Shown here: positions 2,997 through 64,000 of the stretch, one piece after another
Layout: every line of letters starts with the position of its first letter
Numbering within the stretch: the first letter of the stretch is position 1
DNA from: Protoeuglena noctilucae
Taxonomy: Eukaryota
Length of the DNA: 64,000 bases
Direction of reading: 5' to 3'
NCBI GenBank assembly: GCA_958009085.1
Contig: OY253686.1
Coordinates: 62,001 to 126,000 of the forward strand
Program-made: the position numbers and the translations under genes
The notes under the pieces: model-generated
Told to the model about the DNA's origin: nothing
The model's input: the letters and a program-made list of their open reading frames with translations, nothing else
The model's database searches: none

Positions 2997-4770
2997 TCAA
3001 AACCTCACGTGCCGCAGCGTGGTGTGCCTCCTGGGTCCACCGCCCCCCGCAGCCACCGCCCCAGCAGGCGCATGCGGGGGGAGCGAAGCTCAGCTCTCAG
3101 GGACGACAGCGCCGACTTGTATCTGTCGGTAGAGGGAGAGAGAAAGCACATATGTTGCATATTGGCCATTGATATCACAGTCACTATGTTGTGGTAACTA
3201 GCAGCAGAGGTGAGCGGGGCAGTGGTGGGGATTGCGACGTGCGAGCAAGACACATTCGTGAATGAATGAATGTGACAATACAATGACAATACAATGAATG
3301 TGAACAGCTTTCCACTCTCCATCTCCCATCTCTCACCTCCCTGCTTTCTTCCCCATGACGGTCGCGAATGCGTGGAGGGCGAGGTAGGTGGCGTGGGACG
3401 CGGGCAGCCCCGGCCGGCACGCCACCCCCGTGCGTGCGGTGACAGCGCGGGCGCGGGGATTTGATCAGACGGGGGAGATAGGAAGCGGCCTGAGTTTGGA
3501 AAGGGAGGGAGAGATGGGTGAGAGTGAGATGGGTGAGAGTGATTGAGAGTGAGAGTGACAGTGAGAGTGGGTGAGAGTGGGTGTGAGAGTGGGAGCGGAT
3601 GAGGCGGGGGAGGTCGGAAGCGGCCTGAGCGGGGATGAGAGGGATGAGATGGGTGAGAGGGGGCGCAGTGAGGGGGGTGAGAAGGGTGGGGAGAGATGGG
3701 TGAGAGTGGGTGGGATGGGTGAGGTGAGGCGGCGAGATGGGGTGGGTAGAAGCGGTTAGCATGAGTGCNNNNNNNNNNNNNNNNNNNNNNNNNNNNNNNN
3801 NNNNNNNNNNNNNNNNNNNNNNNNNNNNNNNNNNNNNNNNNNNNNNNNNNNNNNNNNNNNNNNNNNNNNNNNNNNNNNNNNNNNNNNNNNNNNNNNNNNN
3901 NNNNNNNNNNNNNNNNNNNNNNNNNNNNNNNNNNNNNNNNNNNNNNNNNNNNNNNNNNNNNNNNNNNNAACAGGACCGGTACTCGCAGATAGGCTAGACT
4001 ACATCATGTGCTACGTCTGTCTCCTTTTGTGCGATACATCTCGCCTTCTCATGTAGCAGTAACACTCAGCAACGCTTAGTACCAGAAACACACCAGTAAC
4101 GCACTGGCAGTAACAACTCACCGGCGGTGTCGTGAGTTCGTGGCACGCCGCGTTGCCGGGCAAGGCCCCCCCCCCTCGGTAGCACATGCGGCCGGCCACC
4201 AGGACGTTTTCTGACGCGCCGGATGCCAGAAGGCGGGAGGCCACGGAGCCGACCAGGTTACTGCGAAGAGAGACGGGGTGGGTGATTGATTCCAGTGGGA
4301 GGACTGTTTTGACACTTTTAGATTTATGGACTTGAACTTGATGGATAGATTTATAGACTTGATGGGTAGGGCAGGCAGGGAGTCAGTGGGTGCACATGTG
4401 ACGGTGCTGTGAGAGTCGTGGAATGAATGGCGCTGTGGCTCACTCACCACACCGTGCCAGTCGCACGCAGGGTCGACCCCGCAGGGAGAAGGACAACACG
4501 CGCCGCGACGGCTGCGGACCCGTCGAGCACCCAGCACACGTCGCAGGGGCAGGGCGTGTTGGTAGAGGGAGGGACGCGAGAGGTGGGCGGTGCCTGGCAC
4601 GCGTCGGCCAGCGCCCGGGCCGCGGGGCCGGCGAGGGGCGAGTCGCGGAGGACGACGTTGACGATGGCCTGGCGAAGCGACAGGACGGGGCTCGGGAACA
4701 GGTGCTGCAGGACGCGGCAGGTGGGGGCGGGAAGGGCGAGAGCGGGTGCGGGCGCTGTCTCGCGCGACAT
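2997..4770 (-). CDS. TERT: Telomerase reverse transcriptase: N-terminal (TEN) exons at 4770-4122 and C-terminal extension exons at ~3490-2997; the central TRBD/RT region is missing in the gap
   Basis: Splicing exon 1 (ATG 4770, donor after 4448) to exon 2 gives CRVLQHLFPSPVLSLRQAI...TVCNLVGSVASRLLASGASENVLVAG, which matches the TEN motif (human [26 protein letters not shown]). The 3' exons give HATYLALHAFATVMGKKAGRYKSALSSLRAEL...LRGAVDP-RHTTLRHVRF*, which matches the plant TERT C-terminus (WLGLxAxxxVLKKKxSRY...AxD). Two 1-nt indels in C/G runs (~3457, ~3034) are needed. Confidence 0.82.
3769..3968. other. Assembly gap (200 N)
   Basis: Run of N. Confidence 1.
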
Positions 4771-49697: not shown

Positions 49698-51314
49698 ATG
49701 CCCGGCCCGTCCGGGGCTGCGTCGGGCCTCGAGTACCACCTGCATCCGGTGGGTTGGCGTTCCCGACGGCGCGCCGAGGAGGCATTTCATCGTCGAGAAC
49801 GCGTTGGATGCCGATCCTGCTGCACTCAGATCGCGCGGCCTCTCTTTTCCTGCCCAAGAGGCGCCCGGACCTTCCCCCGCCGCAGCTCGTCATCGTCAAC
49901 ATCAGCGATCACTACAACCGCGTCCGACTATCCTTGCCAAGCGGAACGGAGGCGTATCCGGACGGCGTGGCGCGGGTGATTGGCTGCCTGCTGGGCACGC
50001 AGACGGGCCGGACGGTTGAGGTGGTCAACTCGTTCGAAATGGTGAAGGGCGGGGCCGGAATTGACCAGGAACATCTGAAGCTTCGCAAGGATCAGTACAA
50101 GGAGGTGTTCCCGGCCCTGGAGCTCATCGGGTGGTACGCAACGGGCACCAAGGCGAGTTGCACCACCACGGCTGTCGCTTTTTGGAGTCGGAGAGAGCAC
50201 GTCTTGACACGAGGAGATGCGGATGATCGGTTTCGTCGCGTCCGCAGGTGCATGAGGGGGACATGGAGGTGCATCGCTTGGTAAGCGCGATGTGCAACAA
50301 CCCTGTCATGCTGCTGCTGGACACGGCGCTGCGGCAGGGGCGCCGGGACCTGCCGGCGGCGCTGTTGGAGGCAGAGACGCACGATCGCGAGGGCGAGATG
50401 GTCGTGCAGGCGAGGGCCGGGGCGCTGCAGCGAGGGGCGGGCCTGGGCGTCACGCACGTGAGAGATGGTGAACTTTGCGCACCCCTGCGCACCCGTGCTG
50501 GCCGCAGTTGGCGCCCGTGCCGTACACCCTGGTGGCCAGCGAGGCGGAGCGCATCGCCGTGGACCAGGCGAGGCTCGTTTGCACCATGGCATCACTAGGG
50601 GGCTCGCAACCCACGATACCCACGCCGTTGCCGCTACACTGCATGGCTTGCTCAGTGCCGCCCGCTGCGTCGCCGATCGCCGCAGGTGACCAAGCTGGCG
50701 GGGACGGTGGGCACGGCGAGCGTGGGTCGTCAGATGGCGGCCCACATGACCCAGATGGGCTCTGCCGTCGAGATGCTTCGGACGCAGCTGGCGAGGATCC
50801 TGGAGCACCTCGAGGCGAGGGGGCGGCCGATTTCGCGCGAAGTCAATGAGCTTGGCGTGCATGTGCATGTGCCCCCCTGCACCGCACCCTCGCCGCCGAA
50901 GTGCGTATGTCACATCGCAACACATTGCCCTGGCGCACACAGGCGGTCCAAGCGGGCCAGGCGACCCCAGACCACGCGGTGTTGCGATCCGCAGCCGCTC
51001 TGGTGCGGCAACTACCGGACCCGGACGCTCCGGAGTTCAGGTGCGGCAAAGGATGCGTGGGGACGCGTGTCGCTGGTGTTACGGATGTGCTAGCTGATGC
51101 TGGACGCGACTCTCCGCACCGCAGGGAGGCGTTCGTGCGCCAGTCGAGCGACGCGCTGGTGTCCGTGTACTTGGCGCTGCTGACTCAGGGGGCACAGAAG
51201 CTCAACGACATGCTGGCTAAGGTGTCGCTGGCACACGACCGGGGGAGCGTCCCTGGGGGAAGGGGCCCGATGGGCCGCGGCGCGTTTGCCATCCCCCATG
51301 CCGAGGGGCGATAG
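49698..51314 (+). CDS. CSN6: COP9 signalosome subunit 6 (MPN domain), 7 exons
   Basis: LHP|LVIVNISDHY.R, VIGCLLG.Q.GR.VE..NSFE, QYKEVFP.LE.IGWY.TG, EAERIAVD. Confidence 0.93.
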
Positions 51315-51478
51315 GATCGCCCTGTCGGCTTGGCGCAGATGCAGCTGCAACACGGCACTTGCATGCTGCACGACCGGCGCTTCTAATGCTCTGGGTCGTG
51401 CCTGTGGGCGTCGAGCGTCACCCCCGATTTGTTGTTAAGCACTGGAAGTGGACAGAGAGTCCTCGTCTGGCCCGCGAA

Positions 51479-52366
51479 ATGCCAGGTGTGCTGATTGCCA
51501 AACATCCATCCCGTGAAGTCGCCATCCTCGGCCGCTTACGGCACTATCCGCTCGGCTGCCGACAGTTTGCGAGGTCCATGATTGCGAACTGTGCTGCGTT
51601 GAGCCGCAAACCGTGTCCCCGGCGCGCAGGGCTCGTGAAGACCCACGGCGGTGTTGTGGCGAAAAGGCGGGGCGAGGGCGCGGTTAGGGCACCGACGAAG
51701 CGAGCCTCGACGAGGATAAGCCGGAAGCAAGGCGAGGGGATCTGCGGGTTGATCAATGTCCCTACCCTGCGCGCGAACTTCGGTCAGCAGGACGCACGGC
51801 GCAAGGAGAAGCCCGCACTGCGCCACGCAGAGGCCAAACAGGCCGAGATTGCCGCGGCCATAGACGACGGCTCGTGCGAGGGGCGTCCCTGGGAGCGCGT
51901 GGCCGCGTCGCCGAGCGTGGACGTGGTGGTGCGGGTCACGGGCGGGAAGGTCGACCGCGTGAGCCTCCGCGACAATGCCGACGAGGGGCTCCGGCTGCTG
52001 ATCGGCGGGGAGCACGCGGGTGGCGCGGCGGACGCCGTGCGGCGGTGGGTCGAGGGGTACGCCCGGGGCCAGCCACCAGCCGACCCCCTGCCCCTCGCCC
52101 TCCCGTCGCCCGGCGGTGGCTTCACAGCGGCGGTGTTGCGCGCCATGGGTGAGGTGCCTTTCGGCGCCACGGTGTCTTACGGGGAGCTCGCGCGGCGCGC
52201 GGGGAGCCCCGGCGCTGCGCGTGCGGCGGGGCAGGCGTGCGGGTCCAACCCGCTGGCGCTCGTGCTTCCTTGCCACCGCATCCTCGCCGCCGGCAACAAG
52301 CTCGGTGGGTTCTCTTGCGGGCTGAGCGTCAAGCGGAAGCTGCTCGCTCACGAGGGGCTGCTCTGA
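51479..52366 (+). CDS. MGMT: Methylated-DNA--protein-cysteine methyltransferase (Ogt/MGMT); 5' structure uncertain
   Basis: VPFGATVSYGELA...ARAAGQACGSNPL.LVLPCHRI (active-site PCHR), KRKLL.HEG. Confidence 0.9.
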   Translation: MPGVLIAKHPSREVAILGRLRHYPLGCRQFARSMIANCAALSRKPCPRRAGLVKTHGGVVAKRRGEGAVRAPTKRASTRISRKQGEGICGLINVPTLRANFGQQDARRKEKPALRHAEAKQAEIAAAIDDGSCEGRPWERVAASPSVDVVVRVTGGKVDRVSLRDNADEGLRLLIGGEHAGGAADAVRRWVEGYARGQPPADPLPLALPSPGGGFTAAVLRAMGEVPFGATVSYGELARRAGSPGAARAAGQACGSNPLALVLPCHRILAAGNKLGGFSCGLSVKRKLLAHEGLL

Positions 52367-53165
52367 GCAGCGCAGGGAGCGTCGCGGGTCTTGGGGCGAC
52401 GCGGTTGGGTTGTGTCATCAGCCATGTTGAAAGCCCACGATCGATGACGTGAGATTGCAGAGCTTGTTTGCAGCACGGATATAGCTCCGCTTCAACAGGC
52501 ACACGCGTGCTGACGGCCAAGGGCGACGCCGGGGGCGCCCAGCGACGGCCCTGCCCCACCGCCGAGCAACCCCGCGCAGGGCCAGGCACGCAGGGCCAGG
52601 GCAGGCTCGGCATCTGCGCCGGCTGTGAACTGCGCCACACCCGCCCGTGGACCAAGCGGTCTTGATGGGGAAGGAATAGGCTCAGGGAAGTGCCCCTGCA
52701 AGTGCCCCTCGTTCCATCCTTCGTGGAAGCCTTCGTGCCTCAAACAGCGCGGTCCGCTCTGAGGCTGGGACAGTTCTCCTCTCCCGCACAACTTTTATCT
52801 TTTCTAGACGTCGGCGCGGCATACTCCCCTCACGCAAACGCAGCCGCAGCGAGTTCGCAATTTGTCCCGCCCCGGGCCCTCCCTCGAGTCGCGCGGTGAG
52901 TCGCTGCGCTGCTTATGGCTCCTTTGCGCGTGACAAAAACCAGTCCCGCCCACACGGCTTCCCCCGTGGCCCCGGTGCGCGGGGCGGGCCTGCGGGCCCC
53001 TCCGTCTTCTCACCGGTCCCCCGCCTCGGCGGCCGGGTAAATCTGGGCCAGATCCGGCGGTCGCGGTTCAATTCTTCCTGTCTTGACCTCGACGCCTGCA
53101 GCTTTGGTCGTGGGCCGCCTCAGCGGAGTCAGCGCCGGTGTTTGGCCTCGGGCCCTGGGCTCACG

Positions 53166-55119
53166 ATGTACACGTCACTGTACAAGGTTGACAAGTTGTT
53201 CTCCGGCCCGGTGTTCATGGAGCGTACTGAGGCGCAGACCAACGACCAGGGCGTGCTGCGCCCTTCTCTCGTCAACGCATGCTTCAGAAATGACAGCATT
53301 TGGAATTTGTATGACTACAATCAAGACGAGGGCTTTTTTTCCTCGGAGAAAGGAGCTTCCCCGTGCGTCTTCTACCTGCTCGAGCTGGAGCGCCGGAAGG
53401 ACCGGCCGCTCGGCTTCGTCGGCCCGAAGAAGAAGTTCTTCAAATTTGGCATAACGAATGGAGTTCAGGAAAGGGGGGGGCAGCTGAAGAGGGTGGGGGC
53501 GCTCATGCGATTCGCCAAGGTGAGTGCCGCCGATGTGGCCGGCTGCAGTGCTGACGAGTGCGCTCCTCACCTGACATCGTCGGCAATGCATGCTCCGTGG
53601 CGTCCTCACGCTGCAGGTCTCGAGCGCGCGTCTCATGGGCCTGGACGAGAACCTCAACTTCGCCAAGAAGATGGTGAAAAAGTTCGAGATCAGCGGGAGC
53701 CCTGCCGAGTGAGCCGCGGCTGCCCTTACTGCATGCGCTCGTGGCATGACCTCTTCCCTGGCAGAGACGTGCCGACACGCGCCCATGCCTGCGTTGCGAG
53801 CACACGTATGTGGAACTTGCGGAAATGGGCCCGCCCGCAGGGCCAAACGGGGCTCTATGCTCGCTGTGGAGCAAGCGCAGCACGCTGTCATGAGCCGGAA
53901 ATTCCTGACGCGGAGACCAACCGTCCCTTCGGCGGGTGCACCGAGCTTCGCGACCTGGAGGAGGATGAGGCGAGTGCTGCGCGCATACAGAGCATGCGGA
54001 GCATCCGAGCACACCCCTGCCACGCGCATGCGTGCCATGCCTGTCGTGTTTGCAGGTGCGGATTGCGGCCACGGCCGCGCAAGGCCTCGTCACTTTCGCG
54101 CGGGAGAGGCTCGACAGCGACCCCGGCCTTGCGGCCAGCGTCGCGGTGGCTTTCGGGGCTCCGCTGCCGCCCGCCCATCGCAAGTTGTGGACGTCGGAGG
54201 CCCCCTTCATCCCTGCGCCCCGCGTGTTCGACATGATGCTTCGGGATGTCCCGGGGTTCGGCGACCTCGTCCAGAAGATGGACTTCAAGCTCGGGCAGGT
54301 CGTCCCGTGCGAAAGCGCGGGCATCACGTGCGTGCGTGCGTGCGTGCGTGCGCGCAGCATGGCTCCCCGCCCCTGGGGCGGGTTCTCCTATCAGCGCCTC
54401 CTCACCCCCCTCCCACTTCCGCTCTGGTCCCAGCTGCGCGGATTGCCGCAGGCCGCACTCCCAAAGCGGCATGGGATGGCTCTACGAGGTGGACGGGACC
54501 GGGAAGGCCGTGGCGGCCAGGTGCTGGCCGTGTTCCAAGTCCGAGAAGGAGGACCCGGTCAAGAAGTACATGAGGGAGGCCGACATCCACCTGGGGCCCA
54601 AGAAATACAGCGCTGAGGACGAGGAGGCCATCGTCAGCCTCGTGGCATGCTACCCGAAGATCAGGTGGAGGGAGCGCCTGGTGAGCTGGGTGGTGGGATG
54701 TGCGTGTATGCGGGTGTGTCTATCATACTCTATGCATGCATGCCTGACCATGCCGTCCACTGCGCGTGCCCCCACATGTACAGGAACGGGGGCAGTCGGA
54801 GGGCTTGCTGGGGGAGCGGACGGCGCAGGGAATCATGGAGCACTTCAACGGCGCCCTGAGGAAGAAGCTGAAGAAGATGGGGGAGGAGGTGCCGCTGCAG
54901 CTGGTGAGCGGCTGCGGCGGCTGCGGGAAGGTGGGGTGCGGCGCGGGCAGCTGAATGGCACGCAGAGCCGTGGCTTGACGCCATTTTTGCGCGCAGAGGA
55001 TAGGGCGCTATGACCCGTGGACCATCAAGGATCAGCGGGCCCTCGTGGCCCACGTCAGGTGGCAGTGGCAGCACCCCAACTCCCGCAACGAGATTAAGTG
55101 GGAGGCGGCGGGGGCTTAG
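53166..55119 (+). CDS. Spliced gene or pseudogene: T5orf172/GIY-YIG-like nuclease + C4 zinc ribbon + two Myb/SANT-like repeats
   Basis: Nuclease-like: VFYLLE...FKFGITNGVQER...AVEQAQH...GGCTEL. Zinc ribbon: CADC-x25-CWPC. Myb-like: YSAEDEEAI...W...ERTAQGIMEHF and PWTIKDQRALV...IKWEA. Needs a 1-nt indel at ~53905 or an alternative acceptor. Confidence 0.55.
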
Positions 55120-55139
55120 GGGAAGCGTCATCAGGCCAC

Positions 55140-56200
55140 CTGAACGCGTGCGCTAGTGGAGTGGCACGCCCAAGGGACTGGGGGGACCGGATCTCGGGAC
55201 CTGGGTCCCCCGCTCTGTCCCACGAGGGGGGCGCCGCAGCCTTTGCAACACTCCGAACATGACGTGAAACCCTCGGCTACTGCTCCCGACTCTACTAGGC
55301 TCCCGCCCGCCGGCGCCCGCCCGAGGTTTCCTTGCGGGCACCCCGGAACGAGCACCGACGGGCAATAACCACTGTCCCTAGAGACCGAACCCGGACTTTG
55401 GGCCCTGGAGGACCGGCGACCTTGAACTCCTGCACGTCCAAGAAGCACCGAAAGAACATGTGCAGACTCACCACGTCCCGCGCACGCGCGAGCAGGCTAC
55501 CCACACCATCACAGGAGTGCCATCTAGCAGACCCGGTGGGGCGCACCTTGCCGCCGCCCCGCCAGCAGAAGGTGTACAGCTGCGCCAGGACAGAGCAAAG
55601 CATGCATATGGCGCCGTGGAATACGCTGGCGAGCCCCCACCTGTTGCGGCCTCACCTGGGTCTTACCTGCAGCTGCTGGCACTGCCCCTGGGACGCCCTC
55701 CCACGCGGACCTGCAACGCGGACCTTCCCGGCCGCTCACGCGGCAGCCGGGAAGCCGCGCCACGAGAACCTGCGGCCATTGGCGTGGGCGAGGACGAGCC
55801 TGTCGCCCCGCTTCCCCAGCAGAGCAGCAAGGCGCCCTGCCCCAGTGACAGCCAGAGTGTCTTGGACCTCGGCTGCCACGATGGCGCCAAGCTGGGCATA
55901 GAGGCCTGCGGGCGTCGACGGGGAGCGCCAGTTCTCCCGAAGCTCTTGGCGGCGCCTCCAGATGAGCTTGAAAGCCGCGCCCACGATGACCGCCCACGAG
56001 TACTGCGTGAAACGGCTGGGGGAAGGGGGGACCAGGTGGAACACCGCCCGCGCCGAGAGGGCCGGGGCCCGCGCGGCCGCCTTGACCGTCTCCCACACCT
56101 CCTGGGCCCTGTCACAGGCCCAGAAGGCGTGGGCGACCGTGTCGTCGTGGGAGCACTGCTCGCCATCCCTGCGGAGGAGGGGGCACGTGGTGAGGTCGAG
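55140..56200 (-). mobile_element. 3' fragment of an L1/Tx1-like non-LTR retrotransposon (zf-RVT cysteine-rich region); 3' boundary uncertain
   Basis: The frame 56200-55736 reads CPL...CSHDDTVAHAFWACDRAQEVW...FKLIWRRR, matching the C..E/DT..H.F..C..A..VW and IW..R signature of L1 ORF2 C-termini. Confidence 0.78.
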
Positions 56201-56494
56201 CTAGCTATAAACGACGCCTGGAACGGCGCGGAACAGCGGCGGCGCTCCGACGGTTGAATTCTTTACTAAGGATTACTGATGACGGTAATGACACGCGCAC
56301 GGCGGCGCCAGCGTTGACTTTCAGCGGCGCCAGCGTTGACCGTACGCGCCTCATAAAAAATTATTCCAACAGCCGCGCGGCCGTAGGGGCCGAAGGCCAG
56401 CTGGACAAATGTCCCCATCGGGCTTCGCCCTACGCCTTGAACGACGCCTGGAAGCCCTCAGCTTACGCCAAAAAAAAGAGAAAAGAGGCGTCAG

Positions 56495-56881
56495 TCAGTC
56501 CAGACGCACAATGTCATCTACACCTTCGACCCAGTTGGGACCATCATCGTCATCGTCGATGATATACCTCGGCATCACGATGTGTCTGCAAAGCGAAGCC
56601 TGCCGCCATGCTTGACACTCATGGCAATTATTCAGGTGTAATTCAAAATACTTATGATTGACGTAATGCTCTTCTTCCCAGGCGTACCCCTTATGAAACA
56701 GATACTGAGGGAATGCTTCAATAGCAGCCTGGATCGCAGCTTTAGGGTCACCATGGCATAATATGGCGAAATCGAGCTCGTCGCTCACGATGATATCACG
56801 ATCGGGGACACCGGCCGAAGGCTCCACGAACGTCTTCTCGCGAGGACACCAGACAGTCGGGTCGCGTTGTCTCTTTGGCAT
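56495..56881 (-). CDS. Hypothetical viral protein, 128 aa (H-x3-C-x2-C...C-x-H possible metal site, acidic tail)
   Basis: Intronless ORF whose ATG is preceded by the duplicated 32-nt motif and TATATAT. Confidence 0.65.
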   Translation of the reverse strand: MPKRQRDPTVWCPREKTFVEPSAGVPDRDIIVSDELDFAILCHGDPKAAIQAAIEAFPQYLFHKGYAWEEEHYVNHKYFELHLNNCHECQAWRQASLCRHIVMPRYIIDDDDDGPNWVEGVDDIVRLD

Positions 56882-56888
56882 ATATATA

Positions 56889-56920
56889 ATGGAGAAAAGC
56901 TTTACGGCGTTTTTCTCCCA
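56889..56920 (-). promoter_or_regulatory. 32-nt palindromic upstream motif, copy 1
   Basis: 30/32 identical to 57353-57384; both copies lie 7 nt upstream of a minus-strand ATG. Confidence 0.65.
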
Positions 56921-57081
56921 CGCCTGTACCGTTCCTTCGAACGCTGGATCGTGGCTTCACGGTACTCCTGGTTTTCCGAATATCGGGCCTTTGCTTTCGC
57001 GAGAATACGTTCTCGATTGGCTTGGTAATAGCGTTTATGCTGAGGTAGATAAGAAGACTTCTTGGGTTCTTCTTCGCTCAT
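56902..57081 (-). CDS. Small basic helical viral protein, 59 aa (absent from the ORF track)
   Basis: MSEEEPKKSSYLPQHKRYYQANRERILAKAKARYSENQEYREATIQRSKERYRRGRKTP*; AT-rich leader. Confidence 0.68.
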   Translation of the reverse strand: MSEEEPKKSSYLPQHKRYYQANRERILAKAKARYSENQEYREATIQRSKERYRRGRKTP

Positions 57082-59244: not shown

Positions 59245-62200
59245 AGTGACCTTTTTCCGATTCGTCGACGGCTCGCGTTTCGCCTCTCGACGCCTCGCGT
59301 TTCGCCTCAATAGTCGACGCGCTGGCCCGCCCAGGGGGGGCTTTCGCTTTCATCATCGGATTAGGCGCGCGGGATCATCATCGCTCATCATCATCAGGTA
59401 GGCCGTCGGCGTAGCGCGAGCGGGAGGGTGGCGAGGGGTGCGGCGGAACGGTCATGTGCATCGCGACTCTCTAGGCAGGAGGCGAGTTCGCAAAACCCCT
59501 GGCAGGCGCCAGGTGAAGGCACAGCCGCTCGGTCTCGTTGGCTCGGGACGAGCCGCGCCCCGGAGCCGAGGGGGGCTTGCGAGGCGCCGCGCGCTTGGCA
59601 GCGTGCGGTAAAATGACGATCTGTAGCATGGATGGGCCGGGAGGCCGGCGGGAGGGGGATGCGGCGACGGGGGCGGCCCGATCAGATGGTGTTGTTAGCT
59701 CGAGCGTTCGGGGCCCGCGCGGTGGCGGGGCGGGGCCGGCGTCGGGTCTTTTGCATGCAGAAGGTTCAGAAGATATCGCAGGAGGGTCTACGGGGGGCGG
59801 AGGAGGCGGAGCGGGCGCGGGTGCGCGGCGCGGGGGCGCGCTGGGGCAGCATGGCGGCGCGAGGAGAAGGGGGGGCGGGAGCGGTCTGCGAGGCCGGGGG
59901 AGCGGGGAGAGTCGGTCTGGAGGCGTTCGAAGCTCGGGAGCGCAAGGGTCGGAGGTTGGAGAGGCGCCGGGAGCGCGTATCGGCGCGCTCCCACCCATCC
60001 CGCTGCCGCCGTTGGGGAATCTGCCCCCGCCGCCGCCGCCGCCGCGGATGGCGCCGGCCGCGGTGCCGGCGCGCGGGCCACGGCGACGGGGAAGGCGGAG
60101 CGCGGCGCGGGACCTCGCGCCCGACGACCTGCGGGTCGTCAGCGTCAACGTGCGGGGGCTGTCGAGCGGGGCCATGGCGGGCAAGCGGGCGACGGTGCGG
60201 CGGCTGGTGCGGAGGCTGCGGGCGGACGTGGTGGTTCTACAGGAGGTCAAGATGCGGGCGGGGCAGGAGGCGGTGGCGTCGGGATTCTTCCCCCAATACT
60301 TCTGCCACTGGTCGCTGGACGAGAACGGCGGCCCGGGGGGCGTGGGGGTGCTGGTACATCGGGAGTCGGTGGCGGGCGCGCCGAAGCGGCGCGGGGCGGA
60401 CGTGGAAGGGCTGGCGGGGCGGGCGTGCGCAGTCGACCTCGCATGGGCCGACCGGCGCTTCACGGTGGTGGGGGTCTACGCGCCGGCGTCCGGGGGGGCG
60501 GCAGCGCACAGGGACTTCACTGCGCGGCTGCGGCATCTGATGCCGCCTCGCCAGGCGCACAGGGAGACGATCGTCGTTGGGGACTTCAACTGCACGTCGG
60601 GTCACCCGCTCGAGCGGGCGTCCCGGCGCTACCACGACGACCTGGCCAAGGTCATCCACTGGACGGAGAACGTGACGGGGCCGCAGGGGCTGGCGGACGT
60701 GCACGTGCAGCTGGGGCTGCGCCGGGACACCTACACGTGGTTCGGGGCGCGAGCGGAGGGGGCAGCGACGCCGGCGGCGCGCATTGACCGCTGCCTGGCG
60801 CGCCCGGCCCTGCTGGTCCGGTACCCGGCGACGCTGGCGGCGCGCTTCGTGCCCGGGCTGGACCACAAGGCGCTCGTCCTGACGCTACGGCGGCGGGCAG
60901 ACAGGGCCGCGGGGCGCAACCCGCTGCGGCAGGTCCGGCCGCTCTGGGCGCCGGGGAGCCATGAGGCCGAGCGATTCCGGCGGGGTGTGTGGAGGGACTT
61001 ACCGGCGGACGGGCCGGGGTGCACGTCGGTGCGAGTGGCCAAGGTCATCCGGCACCGCGCGGAGGCGATCAACCTGGTGGTGCGGCGGCGGCGGGACGGG
61101 GAGCGGAGGCGTCTGGAGAAGCAACTGGGACGGGCAGAGAGGAGGGCGCAGCGGACGAACGCGACGGAGGACTGGGACCGGATGCTGGACCTGCAGCGCC
61201 AGCTGACGGTGCTGGAGCAGCAGGAGGTCCAGTGGCAGAGCGAGCGGGCGAAGCACTTTCTGCGGGTCTTCGGGGCCGTGCCGAGTCGGCGGATCACGGC
61301 CCATTTCAAGTGGCGGCGGCGGGTCGAGGGCGTCACGGACGACCTCGCGCGGGACCTGCAGACCAACATGGCCCAGCTCTACGCCCCTGCCGCGCCCCCT
61401 GCCTCCGCGGACGGCCAACATGAGAGGGCACGCGCTAACTTCCTGCGCAACCCGCGGTCGCCGCTGTCGGAGGAGGCGAGGGCCGCTCTCGAGGCAGACG
61501 TGACACGGGCGGAGGCGGCGGAGGCGATACAGGGTCTACGGGGCGACAGCTGCGGTGGCGCGGACGGCATCTCCCCGGCGCTGCTCAAGGCGTGCCAGGG
61601 CACCGGGACCGAGGCGGGTGTCGAGCGGGTGGTCGCCTACTTCGTCAACAAGCTCCTCCGCGGCGAGGGGCACGACGGCCGCCTCGCGGACGCCGCCATC
61701 ACGCTCATCCACAAGGGCGGCTCGCGGACGGACTGGCGGCGGTACCGCCCCATCTCCCTACTGTCCGTCCTCTACAAGTCTTCGGCCAAGGTGCTGACGG
61801 CGCGGCTGCTGCGGGTGCTGCCGCAGCTCGTGCACGAGGGGACCAGTTGGGTTTCGTCCCCGGGCGTGACATTGGGACGGCCATCTACTCGCTGCATCTG
61901 CTCGACGAGCTCATGCGCATCCGGCGGCAGTCGGCGTGGGCGGTGCTGGTGGACTTCGAACAGGCGTACGACACGGCCTTCCGGGGGTGGGCTGCGGACG
62001 CGATGGCGTGGGGAGGGCTCCCGCCGCGTTTTGTCAAGGCGGCGGTGGCGCTGCAGAGCGACAGCCGGGCGAGCCTGGTCCTCAACGGGGCGGCGGGGGA
62101 GCCGTTCCCGCTCAACCGGGGCGTCAAGCAGGGATGCCCCCTGAGCCCGCTCATCTTCGTGCTGGCGGTGGAGCCCCTCGCAGAGAGGCTGCGGGCGTGG

Positions 62201-64000
62201 GGCCAGGAGCCGGTGCAGCTGCCGGGCGGCCCGCGGTGCGACCGCGTGCTCGGCATCCGGACGACGGGCGGCAGGGCCCAGACGCTGCTGGCCTTCGCCG
62301 ACGACTTCAACGTGCTGCTCCAACGGCTCGTGGGGCGCGACAGGAACCAACTCGACCCGTGGCGGGAGCTGGCCGAGGTGCTGCGGGACTTCCACCGTGT
62401 GTCCGGGCTGAAGGCGAGCCAGACCGAGACGAAGCTCTACCGACTGGGACGCATCAACAAGCGGCAGGAGGCCAAGGCCGCCGCGCAGGGCTGCCCGTGG
62501 GGGGTGGAGCCGGGGGGCGTGCGGCTGCTGGGGGCGCAGACGAGAGAGCAGGCGGCGCTGGTGTGGCCCGGGCGGCTGGGGGAGGCCCTGCGCCGCGCGG
62601 ACGCGGCGTCATCGCTGGGGCTGCCGATCCGGGGTCGGGCGCGCGTCGCCAACGCCTACATCACCTCGCTCGCGGGGTACCACCTGGAGATGTCCCCCGC
62701 CGCCGACCACTCGTGCGTCGCTGACCTGCGGAGGGTCCAGGAGCGCTATGTCCTCAACGCACGATCGGCGGGGCAGGTGTGGTTCCGTGTGGGCCGCATC
62801 ATGCTGACCGCCCCGCCGGAGGAGGGGGGGCTGGGCGCCCTCCCGCTGGACGCGCACACGGCGGCGCGGCGGCTCCGGCACCTGGCACGCGCCCTCATCA
62901 CGAAGCGCGTGGGCGCTCACGGCCAGTTGGGCGGTCTCGCTGGCATCCTCACGGCGTGCCTGGAGGGGCTCGGGGCAGGCCGGCTGGGCCTGCTGCCCTT
63001 CTCACTGCCCGAGACGGACGGTTGCCACGTGGCGCAGTTGATCGAGTCCCGCCGCCTGCGGGGCAAGCTACCGGCGCTCGAGAGCTTCTGCGACGCCATT
63101 AAGGGCCTCGGGTCCCTGCGCGCGACCCTCGGGCCCGTGCACGCGCCGCCACCTCTGGCACCCACGACGGACGAGGTCGCCCAGCAGCGCTGGACCAACC
63201 TGGCGGCGGAGGGCCGGCTGACGCTCAACTTCGACGGGGGCTCGCGGGGCAACGGTTCCGACACGTCCACGGCTGGCGCGGGGGCGGTGCTGGCGGCCGG
63301 GGAAGGCGAGGGGGTGGAGACGCTGGAGCTCGCGGGCCCCGCCGTGCGCGGGGCCTCCAACAACCAGGCCGAGTTCGCCGCGCTTTTGGGAGGGCTACGC
63401 GCGGCAGTCGAGCTCGGCGCCACCAAGCTCCGCGTCCGGGGGGATTCCCTCCTCGTCATCCGCGCCATGGATCCGCGGGACTGCTCGGCGCTGCGGCACC
63501 CGGCGCTGGTGCCGTTGTGGACCGAGGCGCAGAGGCTCGCGGCGGGCCTCGACATCACTTGGGAGCACGTGCCACGGGAGCAGAACGCCCTGGCGGACCG
63601 CCTGTCCAACGTGGCCATGGACGGGCATGGCTGGCGGGGGGCGCGCGTGGGCGGCGGGGGCCTGGCGGGCACGGACGGCTCGCGTTTCGCCTCTTCTACG
63701 GACTTCTTCACCCCCGTCACTGGGACTACAAAGGGGGATCTACTCTGCGCGTCGCTTCTCACCCCGGGGGTCCTCTGTACCGCCGGCGGGGGCGGCCCGG
63801 GCGCGGGGGTGGCAGCCCTGGGGGCGCCGGCGATGGAGGGGGCGGCTGGCCCCCTCCACAACGACATGGGACAGGACCAAGACGATTCGGCCTCATCGCT
63901 CCACAGCTTCGCGACGGGCGTCCATGGGAGGGCTGGTGGGGCGTGGGTGCACGACGGCGCGCCGGGCGACGACAATACGGATGATGGGATCGACGAGGGG
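59245..64000 (+). mobile_element. L1-like non-LTR retrotransposon (APE-RT-RNase H), running off the window end
   Basis: Return to high GC; contains ORF2 (next feature); 5' boundary coincides with the ATPase truncation. Confidence 0.93.
59613..64000 (+). CDS. LINE ORF2: apurinic-like endonuclease, reverse transcriptase, RNase HI; frameshift at 61839-61840
   Basis: APE: SVNVRGL, LQEVK, VYAP, VGDFN, YTW, RIDR, DH. RT: GADGI, RYRPISLL..LYK, DQLGFVPGR, DFEQAYD, GVKQGCPLSP, FADD. RNase H: FDGGSRGN, NNQAEF.ALL.GL, GDSLLV, HVPREQN.LADRL.N. Confidence 0.95.

Follow-up and report, generated by a model that had tools for sequence, protein, structure and literature searches.

A transcribed seven-exon gene of Protoeuglena noctilucae in which a possible T5orf172-like domain and a zinc-ribbon, Myb-like part lie in different reading frames

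The T5orf172 domain defines a subfamily of the GIY-YIG nucleases, and 95 of 229 phage T5orf172 homing endonucleases carry a CapR-type zinc-finger DNA-binding domain (PMC10448857). I-TevI is described there as a GIY-YIG domain joined by a linker with a zinc finger to a helix-turn-helix (HTH) domain. Here we describe a gene at positions 53166–55119 of a 64,000-nucleotide (nt) stretch of contig OY253686.1 of P. noctilucae (the window), for which an earlier note, made from the sequence alone, had proposed a fusion of a T5orf172/GIY-YIG-like nuclease, a four-cysteine (C4) zinc ribbon and Myb-like repeats. As far as our literature searches show, Myb-like repeats have not been reported together with a T5orf172 or GIY-YIG domain; where PMC4738411 mentions T5orf172 and Myb, the two are unrelated. 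The locus is a spliced, transcribed gene. However, the proposed single fused open reading frame (ORF) does not exist in the observed mRNA, where the N-terminal and C-terminal modules lie in different frames. Our preferred reading, to which we give a probability of roughly 0.45, is that of a lineage-restricted nuclear gene for a once-continuous modular protein that has suffered a recent frame break in exon 3.

The gene comprises seven exons on the forward strand of the window (65% G+C; the host is a GC-rich marine eukaryote) and runs from an ATG at 53166 to a TAG at 55117–55119. Thirteen public sequencing runs were listed for 52900–55300, nine of which hold part of that region. The fraction of sampled words present was 31–40% in X1–X4 (metatranscriptomes of one study), 15% in X5 (a second study) and 96–97% in four runs that share one organism label. 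RNA contigs of X1, X2 and X3 (three samples of the one study) and of X5 (the other study) were aligned on 52600–55600, and match the coding exons of the window with no mismatches and no gaps. They bridge five of the six introns, in up to four runs from the two studies and at splice sites of canonical type. Exons 2 to 7 are joined within one X1 contig of 1016 nt, which bears out the idea of one spliced transcription unit.

Exon 1 (53166–53519, 354 nt) contains the stretches VFYLLEL (53367–53387) and FFKFGITN (53436–53459). Intron 1 (53520–53616, 97 nt, GTGAGT..CAG) is predicted from the sequence and has no RNA bridge; its boundary lies where the similarity to a related protein (P0002, see below) ends. 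Contigs of X1, X2, X3 and X5 do not cover 52600–53609, which includes exon 1, or 53711–53811, and this lack of cover is uninformative rather than a sign of absence. Exon 2 (53617–53708, 92 nt) continues the frame of exon 1 and is represented by a piece of the X1 contig (53615–53708), whose first two letters fit the end of intron 1 and the end of exon 1 alike. Intron 2 (53709–53840, 132 nt, GT..AG) is bridged by a single contig (X1, joint 53708>53841). Exon 3 (53841–53969, 129 nt), which contains the frame break, is covered by RNA pieces from X1 and X2. The joint of intron 3 (53970–54055, 86 nt) was placed at 53967>54054 with three ambiguous letters in the contigs of both X1 and X2; a shift by two gives GC..AG, confirming the GC-AG intron with donor 53970 that had been predicted.

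Exon 4 (54056–54327, 272 nt), the helical linker region, has RNA pieces from X1, X2 and X3. Across intron 4 (54328–54433, 106 nt), with the repeat at 54321–54361 masked in the alignment, four records, from four runs, pass directly from 54320 to 54434 and leave seven letters unplaced, which fits a donor at 54328. This intron opens in a (GTGC)n microsatellite (54328–54352) that offers six successive GT dinucleotides as possible donors, and the RNA is consistent with the first of them. Exon 5 (54434–54680) holds the C4 element and the start of Myb-like unit 1, exon 6 (54784–54903) the remainder of that unit (to 54870), and the coding part of exon 7 (54997–55119) a partial unit 2 and the TAG; each is covered by RNA in four runs. 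The GT..AG introns between them, intron 5 (54681–54783, 103 nt) and intron 6 (54904–54996, 93 nt), have joints in four of four runs, placed at 54679>54783 and 54902>54996. Thus, five of the six donors proposed earlier are confirmed by RNA (53709, 53970, 54328, 54681 and 54904), and donor 53520 lies where RNA cover is lacking. The 3' untranslated region (UTR) extends from 55120 to at least 55364, where an X2 contig that is unbroken over 54996–55364 ends its agreement with the window, and the contigs diverge beyond. The X1 and X5 contigs have an extra G after 55195, in a G run, and an X2 contig replaces 55364–55526 by 61 other letters; either the 3' UTR is polymorphic or the window contains a homopolymer miscount there.

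Because exons 1 and 2 add up to 446 nt, splicing to the RNA-supported acceptor at 53840 leaves exon 3 in phase 2, which does not fit the frame in which exons 4–7 are coding. The observed mRNA thus has no single ORF, with exons 1–2 read in the frame of the ATG and exons 4–7 in another. The ATG-frame ORF has 251 codons and ends at a TGA in exon 4 (54234–54236), which overlaps an ATGATG (54233–54238) of the downstream frame; the first ATG of that frame is at 54233. From acceptor 53840, exon 3 reads AKRGSMLAVEQAQHAVMSRKFLTRR in the ATG frame, and its end reads PDAETNRPFGGCTELRDLEEDE in the frame of exons 4–7. The motif string that had suggested one domain, from FYLLE to GCTEL, is a composite: AVEQAQH (53863–53883) and GCTEL (within 53931–53948) lie in different frames of exon 3, so that the string requires a change of frame by 1 nt.

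Coding signal is present in both halves. We scored codon log-odds with a table trained on four Pfam-supported ORF pieces of the window. Exon 1 scores +66 in the ATG frame versus -61 and -79 in the other frames, with a G+C content by codon position of 0.53/0.37/0.77, and exon 2 scores +30 in frame with it. Further downstream, 53901–53969 scores +22.8 in the frame of exons 4–7, and exon 4 scores +45 in that frame versus -65 in the ATG frame. Its first 59 codons (54056–54232), upstream of the first Met of the downstream frame, contribute +19. Exons 5, 6 and 7 score +56, +34.5 and +16.5 in the downstream frame, and the G+C content at third codon positions (GC3) of exon 6 reaches 0.95. Between these two regions, 53841–53900 has a GC3 of 0.74 in the ATG frame versus 0.45 in the other, and the sliding log-odds switch frames between the windows that start at 53875 and 53884, which places the break at about 53885–53905. 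It is not an assembly error, since exon 3 RNA contigs from two samples (X1 and X2) align to it with no gaps.

Several ways of reading through these boundaries were considered and rejected. Programmed -1 frameshifting would call for a slippery heptamer, and inspection revealed no X_XXY_YYZ in the zero frame around 53885–53905. Editing or transcriptional slippage does not apply, as RNA and DNA are identical in the same interval. Read-through of the TAG at 55117 could, by eye, extend Myb-like unit 2; however, the next 27 codons include a stop and lack coding signal (GC3 0.67, log-odds -1.2), and no coding signal was found beyond 55117–55119.

In the preferred reading, the ancestral product would have been a protein of about 425 residues in which a conserved N-terminal domain was followed by some 90 residues of helical linker, a C4 zinc ribbon and 1.5 Myb/SANT-like helical units. 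With its Y-L-L ... K-F-G-I-T ... R motif, the N-terminal domain may represent a T5orf172/GIY-YIG-like module that has diverged greatly. The halves would now be separated, in this genome and in wild transcripts alike, by a 1-nt frame break in exon 3 (around 53885–53905). The observed mRNA would then encode a 251-residue product, consisting of the N-terminal domain and an out-of-frame tail rich in Arg, Ser and Pro, and would leave the zinc-ribbon/Myb-like part untranslated unless that part is separately started. As the downstream exons keep their full coding signature, the break is probably either recent, in which case the gene would be a young transcribed pseudogene, or tolerated, with the C-terminal part made alone. 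The exon structure, the transcription, the conflict of frames and the coding signal of both halves are shown directly; that the gene was once continuous, when its frame broke, and that the halves act as a nuclease and in DNA binding are what we infer.

Several points weigh against this reading. At the level of the transcript, splicing to the alternative acceptor at 53764 yields one ORF of 470 codons with no mutation needed. The case for ancestral continuity rests on codon statistics, and on the 5' side of the break on about 20 codons, because no relative covering the break was obtained. The link between exon 1 and exon 2 is unproven, as exon 1 has neither RNA cover in the four runs nor a match among Joint Genome Institute (JGI) metagenome contigs. 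At the level of the protein, the domain identities fail every formal test, in Pfam (no family for exon 1 at E<=1, nor for the spliced product of exons 4–7, P0001, at E<=10), PHROGs, NCBIfam and PDB, and the model and profile scores given with the domains below also count against it.

The first of these points leads to a different account of the locus, in which the gene is intact. The productive mRNA would use acceptor 53764 to encode one protein of 470 residues, the 53840 junction would belong to an unproductive isoform, and AVEQAQH would never be translated. From 53166 to the TAG at 55117, this model keeps exactly to one frame and meets no stop over its 1413 nt (470 codons). The acceptor context, CCTCTTCCCTGGCAG, is pyrimidine-rich, with a CTTAC branch-like site, read by eye, 34 nt upstream, and the X2 contig ends exactly at 53841, as it might at a branch of the assembly graph, which is a weak hint in the same direction. 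However, the sole contig across the junction of intron 2 (X1, depth 21.6) uses 53840 and not 53764, and 53765–53840 has no RNA cover. Coding character is absent from the 45 codons gained or re-read in this model, with log-odds of -7.6 for 53765–53840 and a GC3 for 53841–53900 of 0.45, as against 0.77–0.95 in the other exons. Intron 2 would also shrink to 56 nt and be the shortest of the six, the others measuring 86–132 nt. An intact gene is therefore unlikely in our view.

The overlap of the TGA of the upstream ORF (54234–54236) with the downstream ATGATG raises the further idea that two products are made: the 251-residue protein, and a predicted zinc-ribbon/Myb-like DNA-binding protein of 194 residues from the ATG at 54233. 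The second might be translated from a shorter transcript whose start lies in intron 3 or in which that intron is retained; alternatively, ribosomes might re-initiate at the ATGA where stop and start overlap. An X3 contig has its first position, 54002, within intron 3 and reads on into exon 4 without splicing; P0001, predicted on a JGI contig of 1172 nt, takes its first residue from the first codon of exon 4; and exons 4–7 retain a full coding signature. Set against this, contigs cannot show where transcripts start, so that the beginnings at 54002 and in exon 4 cannot be read as such, and re-initiation after an ORF of 251 codons is rare in eukaryotes. In addition, the 59 codons of exon 4 upstream of the ATG at 54233 are coding-like (+19), which suggests that the downstream frame was once read from further upstream. 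We consider the production of two proteins from an arrangement of this kind to be quite unlikely.

A more elaborate version seems to us very improbable. Here, an intron-bearing nuclear gene would have descended from one of the T5orf172/GIY-YIG homing-endonuclease-like kind, keeping the layout of I-TevI with a Myb-like repeat as its HTH. It would now be split into a nuclease-like and a zinc-ribbon/Myb-like ORF that overlap at the ATGA (54233–54236), both translated from one mRNA, the second after termination and re-initiation or by way of an internal start.

The gene is an orphan by sequence comparison, with a single detectable relative, for one exon only. An exhaustive phmmer search with exon 1 against 1.84 billion cluster representatives returned two proteins at E<=0.001. 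The first, P0002 (131 residues), matches exon 1 residues 6–117 with 44% identity (E 3e-17) and has the same starting Met; the similarity stops exactly at the end of exon 1, where P0002 continues into apparent intron sequence. The second, P0003, was rejected as a tandem-repeat artefact. P0004, a cluster mate of P0002, covers the same exon in an ORF call that is longer at the N-terminus, made on an ENA contig of 502,807 nt. A run of about 14 residues, GPRGRLDRLPHLLG, is nearly identical between residues 31–46 of P0004 and positions 56063–56113 of the window (plus frame, in the ORF at 55382–56257). A repeat fragment common to both is the probable explanation, and the match suggests a close relationship between the relative's genome and this one.

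For the downstream exons, P0001 is a JGI-predicted protein of 253 residues, 100% identical to spliced exons 4–7. Word-index searches with exons 4–7 among proteins of longer, near and shorter lengths recovered the organism's own P0001 and P0005 and no other relative. Metagenome contigs gave no match with either the exon 1 alignment or a 30-nt exon 3 string, and viral contigs none with exon 5, the exon 1 alignment or P0001. A tblastn search of phages with exon 1 gave four records at E=6, which align residues 3–57, outside the motif.

Exon 1 contains both FYLLE and FKFGITN, and in the order of a Tyr-bearing strand (VFYLLEL), K-F-G-I-T and an Arg-bearing helix it resembles T5orf172 (PF10544) and MUG113 (PF13455) domains, as found in the homing endonucleases of phages T5 and ICP1. 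The likeness extends to the presence of a CxxC zinc element, since the 277-residue T5orf172 protein of phage T5 also has CxxC pairs. The differences are considerable. A 17-residue insert separates the two strands here, about 35 extra residues precede the putative second half, and that half is undetectable and spread over two frames. The module is also N-terminal, in an intron-bearing nuclear gene.

We found no curated profile that recognizes this region. Pfam hmmscan with exon 1 and the stop-to-stop frames over exons 2–4, the N-terminal half being tested as a single piece, gave no relevant family at E<=1, and PHROGs, NCBIfam and a PDB profile search returned nothing relevant. A hidden Markov model (HMM) of T5orf172 was built from 32 domains, two from phage T5, in which there are three T5orf172 matches, and 30 from loci returned from 43 matching genomes among 400 (one bacterial class). 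The T5-like viral loci L005–L012 were left out as near-identical to T5, and the genomes of loci L013 and L014 have no PF10544 match. Exon 1 scores 6.4 bits against this model, compared with 31–73 bits for bacterial members, and aligns only over positions 17–47 (KKKFFKFGITN-GVQERGGQLKR). The best of 500 shuffles reaches 2.0 bits and the best other among 675 ORFs of the window 1.7 bits. The HMMER E-value of 0.00058 holds for one sequence and becomes about 0.4 over some 676 ORFs. P0002, the relative of exon 1, reaches only 1.9 bits, as the best shuffles do, and hhalign probabilities are 5.7% for the read-through domain and 3.4% for a profile of the two sequences. The second half of the proposed domain (the Glu of E..H and the (T)E-[WF]-F motif), assessed with an exon 3 peptide bridged with X, gives -1.1 bits, ranking 773 of 2003 in a comparison with 2000 shuffles. 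On the profile scores, then, the second half is indistinguishable from chance and the first half is suggestive at most.

AlphaFold2 modelling of exon 1 from a two-sequence alignment gave a mean predicted local distance difference test (pLDDT) score of 40.1, with the motif stretches forming a strand pair at pLDDT of about 50–57. In a protein atlas, exon 1 has neighbours at 0.89, 0.88 and 0.87, two of which are clusters annotated in part as T5orf172 (31% and 47% of members; the neighbour at 0.88 has PF10544 in 31%). The atlas scores lie below the marks of reliability, with 142 shared features, where true members usually have 170 or more, and recognition values of 2050 and 2185 versus 2300, so that the language-model neighbours of both halves are weak leads.

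The C-terminal part does contain the C4 element as described, CADC-x25-CWPC at 54435–54533 in exon 5, with the two CxxC pairs of a zinc ribbon. AlphaFold places strands between the CxxC knuckles of P0001 at low confidence. The regions 54600–54870 and 55009–55116 appear as two helical units with W/Y/F spacing, the second of which ends after about 1.5 helices at the TAG at 55117. Unit 1 resembles Myb/SANT domains (PF00249, PF13921) in its acidic residues after an aromatic residue and its hydrophobic helices. It differs in having Tyr as its first aromatic residue and Phe as its last, in place of Trp, and unit 2 is incomplete. The end of unit 1, G-E-R-T-x-x-Q...H-F, also resembles the third Myb helix.

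No statistical test confirmed the Myb-like repeats. P0001 matches no Pfam family at E<=10 and no NCBIfam family. Its predicted helices (residues 151–162, 169–178 and 185–204) have pLDDT below 50, in a model with an overall value of 42, and this model and that of exon 1 are both too poor to use. The Myb/SANT-like character of the C-terminal part is an impression by eye. In the protein atlas, P0001 has neighbours at 0.77 that are annotated in part as Myb_DNA-bind_6 (18–33% of members). A phmmer search of PDB with P0001 produced 36 weak matches over residues 67–135, nearly all to antibody heavy-chain variable domains or nanobodies (best E 2.2e-5, the rest 0.08 or weaker). These were set aside as artefacts of composition and over-representation, because residues 67–135 are built round two CxxC pairs.

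Both resemblances could therefore be due to chance, in which case the gene would be an orphan of unknown fold with a zinc-binding CxxC pair and no nuclease. The silence of all curated libraries, hhalign probabilities of 3–6%, second-half motifs at chance level, a relative that does not exceed shuffled sequences and atlas scores below the reliability marks all favour this explanation. It fits less well with the conservation between exon 1 and P0002, as their longest invariant block, FFKFGITNG, coincides exactly with the part of exon 1 that can be aligned with the KIG.T core of T5orf172. Likewise, exon 1 outscored every other ORF of the window and every shuffle, and the atlas comparisons of the two halves led, independently of each other, to the same two families that the earlier note had named. 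We regard chance resemblance in both halves as improbable. Independently of the question of frames, it is a tentative possibility, with the balance leaning slightly the other way, that the N-terminal domain is a true GIY-YIG/T5orf172 relative, and its nuclease role is putative. The identification as a T5orf172/GIY-YIG-like nuclease that was put forward earlier lacks a Pfam match (T5orf172, MUG113 or GIY-YIG, PF01541) and has no significant score with the custom HMM or hhalign.

The likeness to I-TevI as described in PMC10448857 lies in the order of modules: a catalytic-like domain comes first, and a long linker and a zinc element lead to an HTH-like DNA-binding part at the C-terminus. This order also matches that of T5orf172 homing endonucleases. 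In contrast to I-TevI, no sequence relation is shown, the C-terminal part here is Myb/SANT-like by eye only, the ORF is broken in frame, and the locus has no sign of homing (no interrupted host gene or intron and no second copy in the window).

The suggestion that the gene is the cargo of a transposon, or a domesticated mobile gene or homing element, is not supported. A tblastn search of the 64-kb window found no second copy, the flanks contain only chance-like inverted-repeat matches of 14–28 nt (71–93% complementary), and no viral relatives were detected in viral contigs. The introns are of host type, including the GC-AG intron.

The upstream neighbours are ordinary host genes. An MGMT-type methyltransferase ORF on the same strand (51221–52366, stop-to-stop; PF01035, E 1.5e-27 over residues 301–379, with a visible PCHR motif) lies about 800 nt upstream of exon 1, and JAB, HSP70 and ankyrin ORFs are found further upstream. 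Downstream of the gene are sequences of long interspersed nuclear element (LINE) type. A LINE-type retroelement on the forward strand (59517–64000), with endonuclease/exonuclease/phosphatase, reverse transcriptase and RNase H domains, comprises an ORF at 59517–62144 (Exo_endo_phos, E 8e-17) and an open-ended ORF at 61439–64000 (RVT_1, 6e-13; RVT_3, 5e-13; RNase H, 2e-4). On the reverse strand, a 153-codon ORF (56495–56956) has a protein-like translation that is less GC-biased than its surroundings and gives no Pfam match at E<=0.1; it may belong to the virus cluster to which attention had been drawn before. Elsewhere in the window, positions 3769–3968 are 200 N, an assembly gap.

At present, the evidence is mainly a caution: the attractive motif string was put together from two reading frames, and none of the domain assignments passes a test. 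Should the N-terminal domain truly be a GIY-YIG/T5orf172 relative, the locus would be a rare case of a spliced, host-expressed eukaryotic gene with the module order of a phage homing endonuclease. The gene would in that event have been caught during or just after the separation of nuclease and DNA-binding parts, and would bear on how selfish nucleases become regulators. In the more elaborate version above, in which both overlapping ORFs are translated, it would capture a selfish nuclease in the course of its domestication as a DNA-binding regulator of a marine alga.

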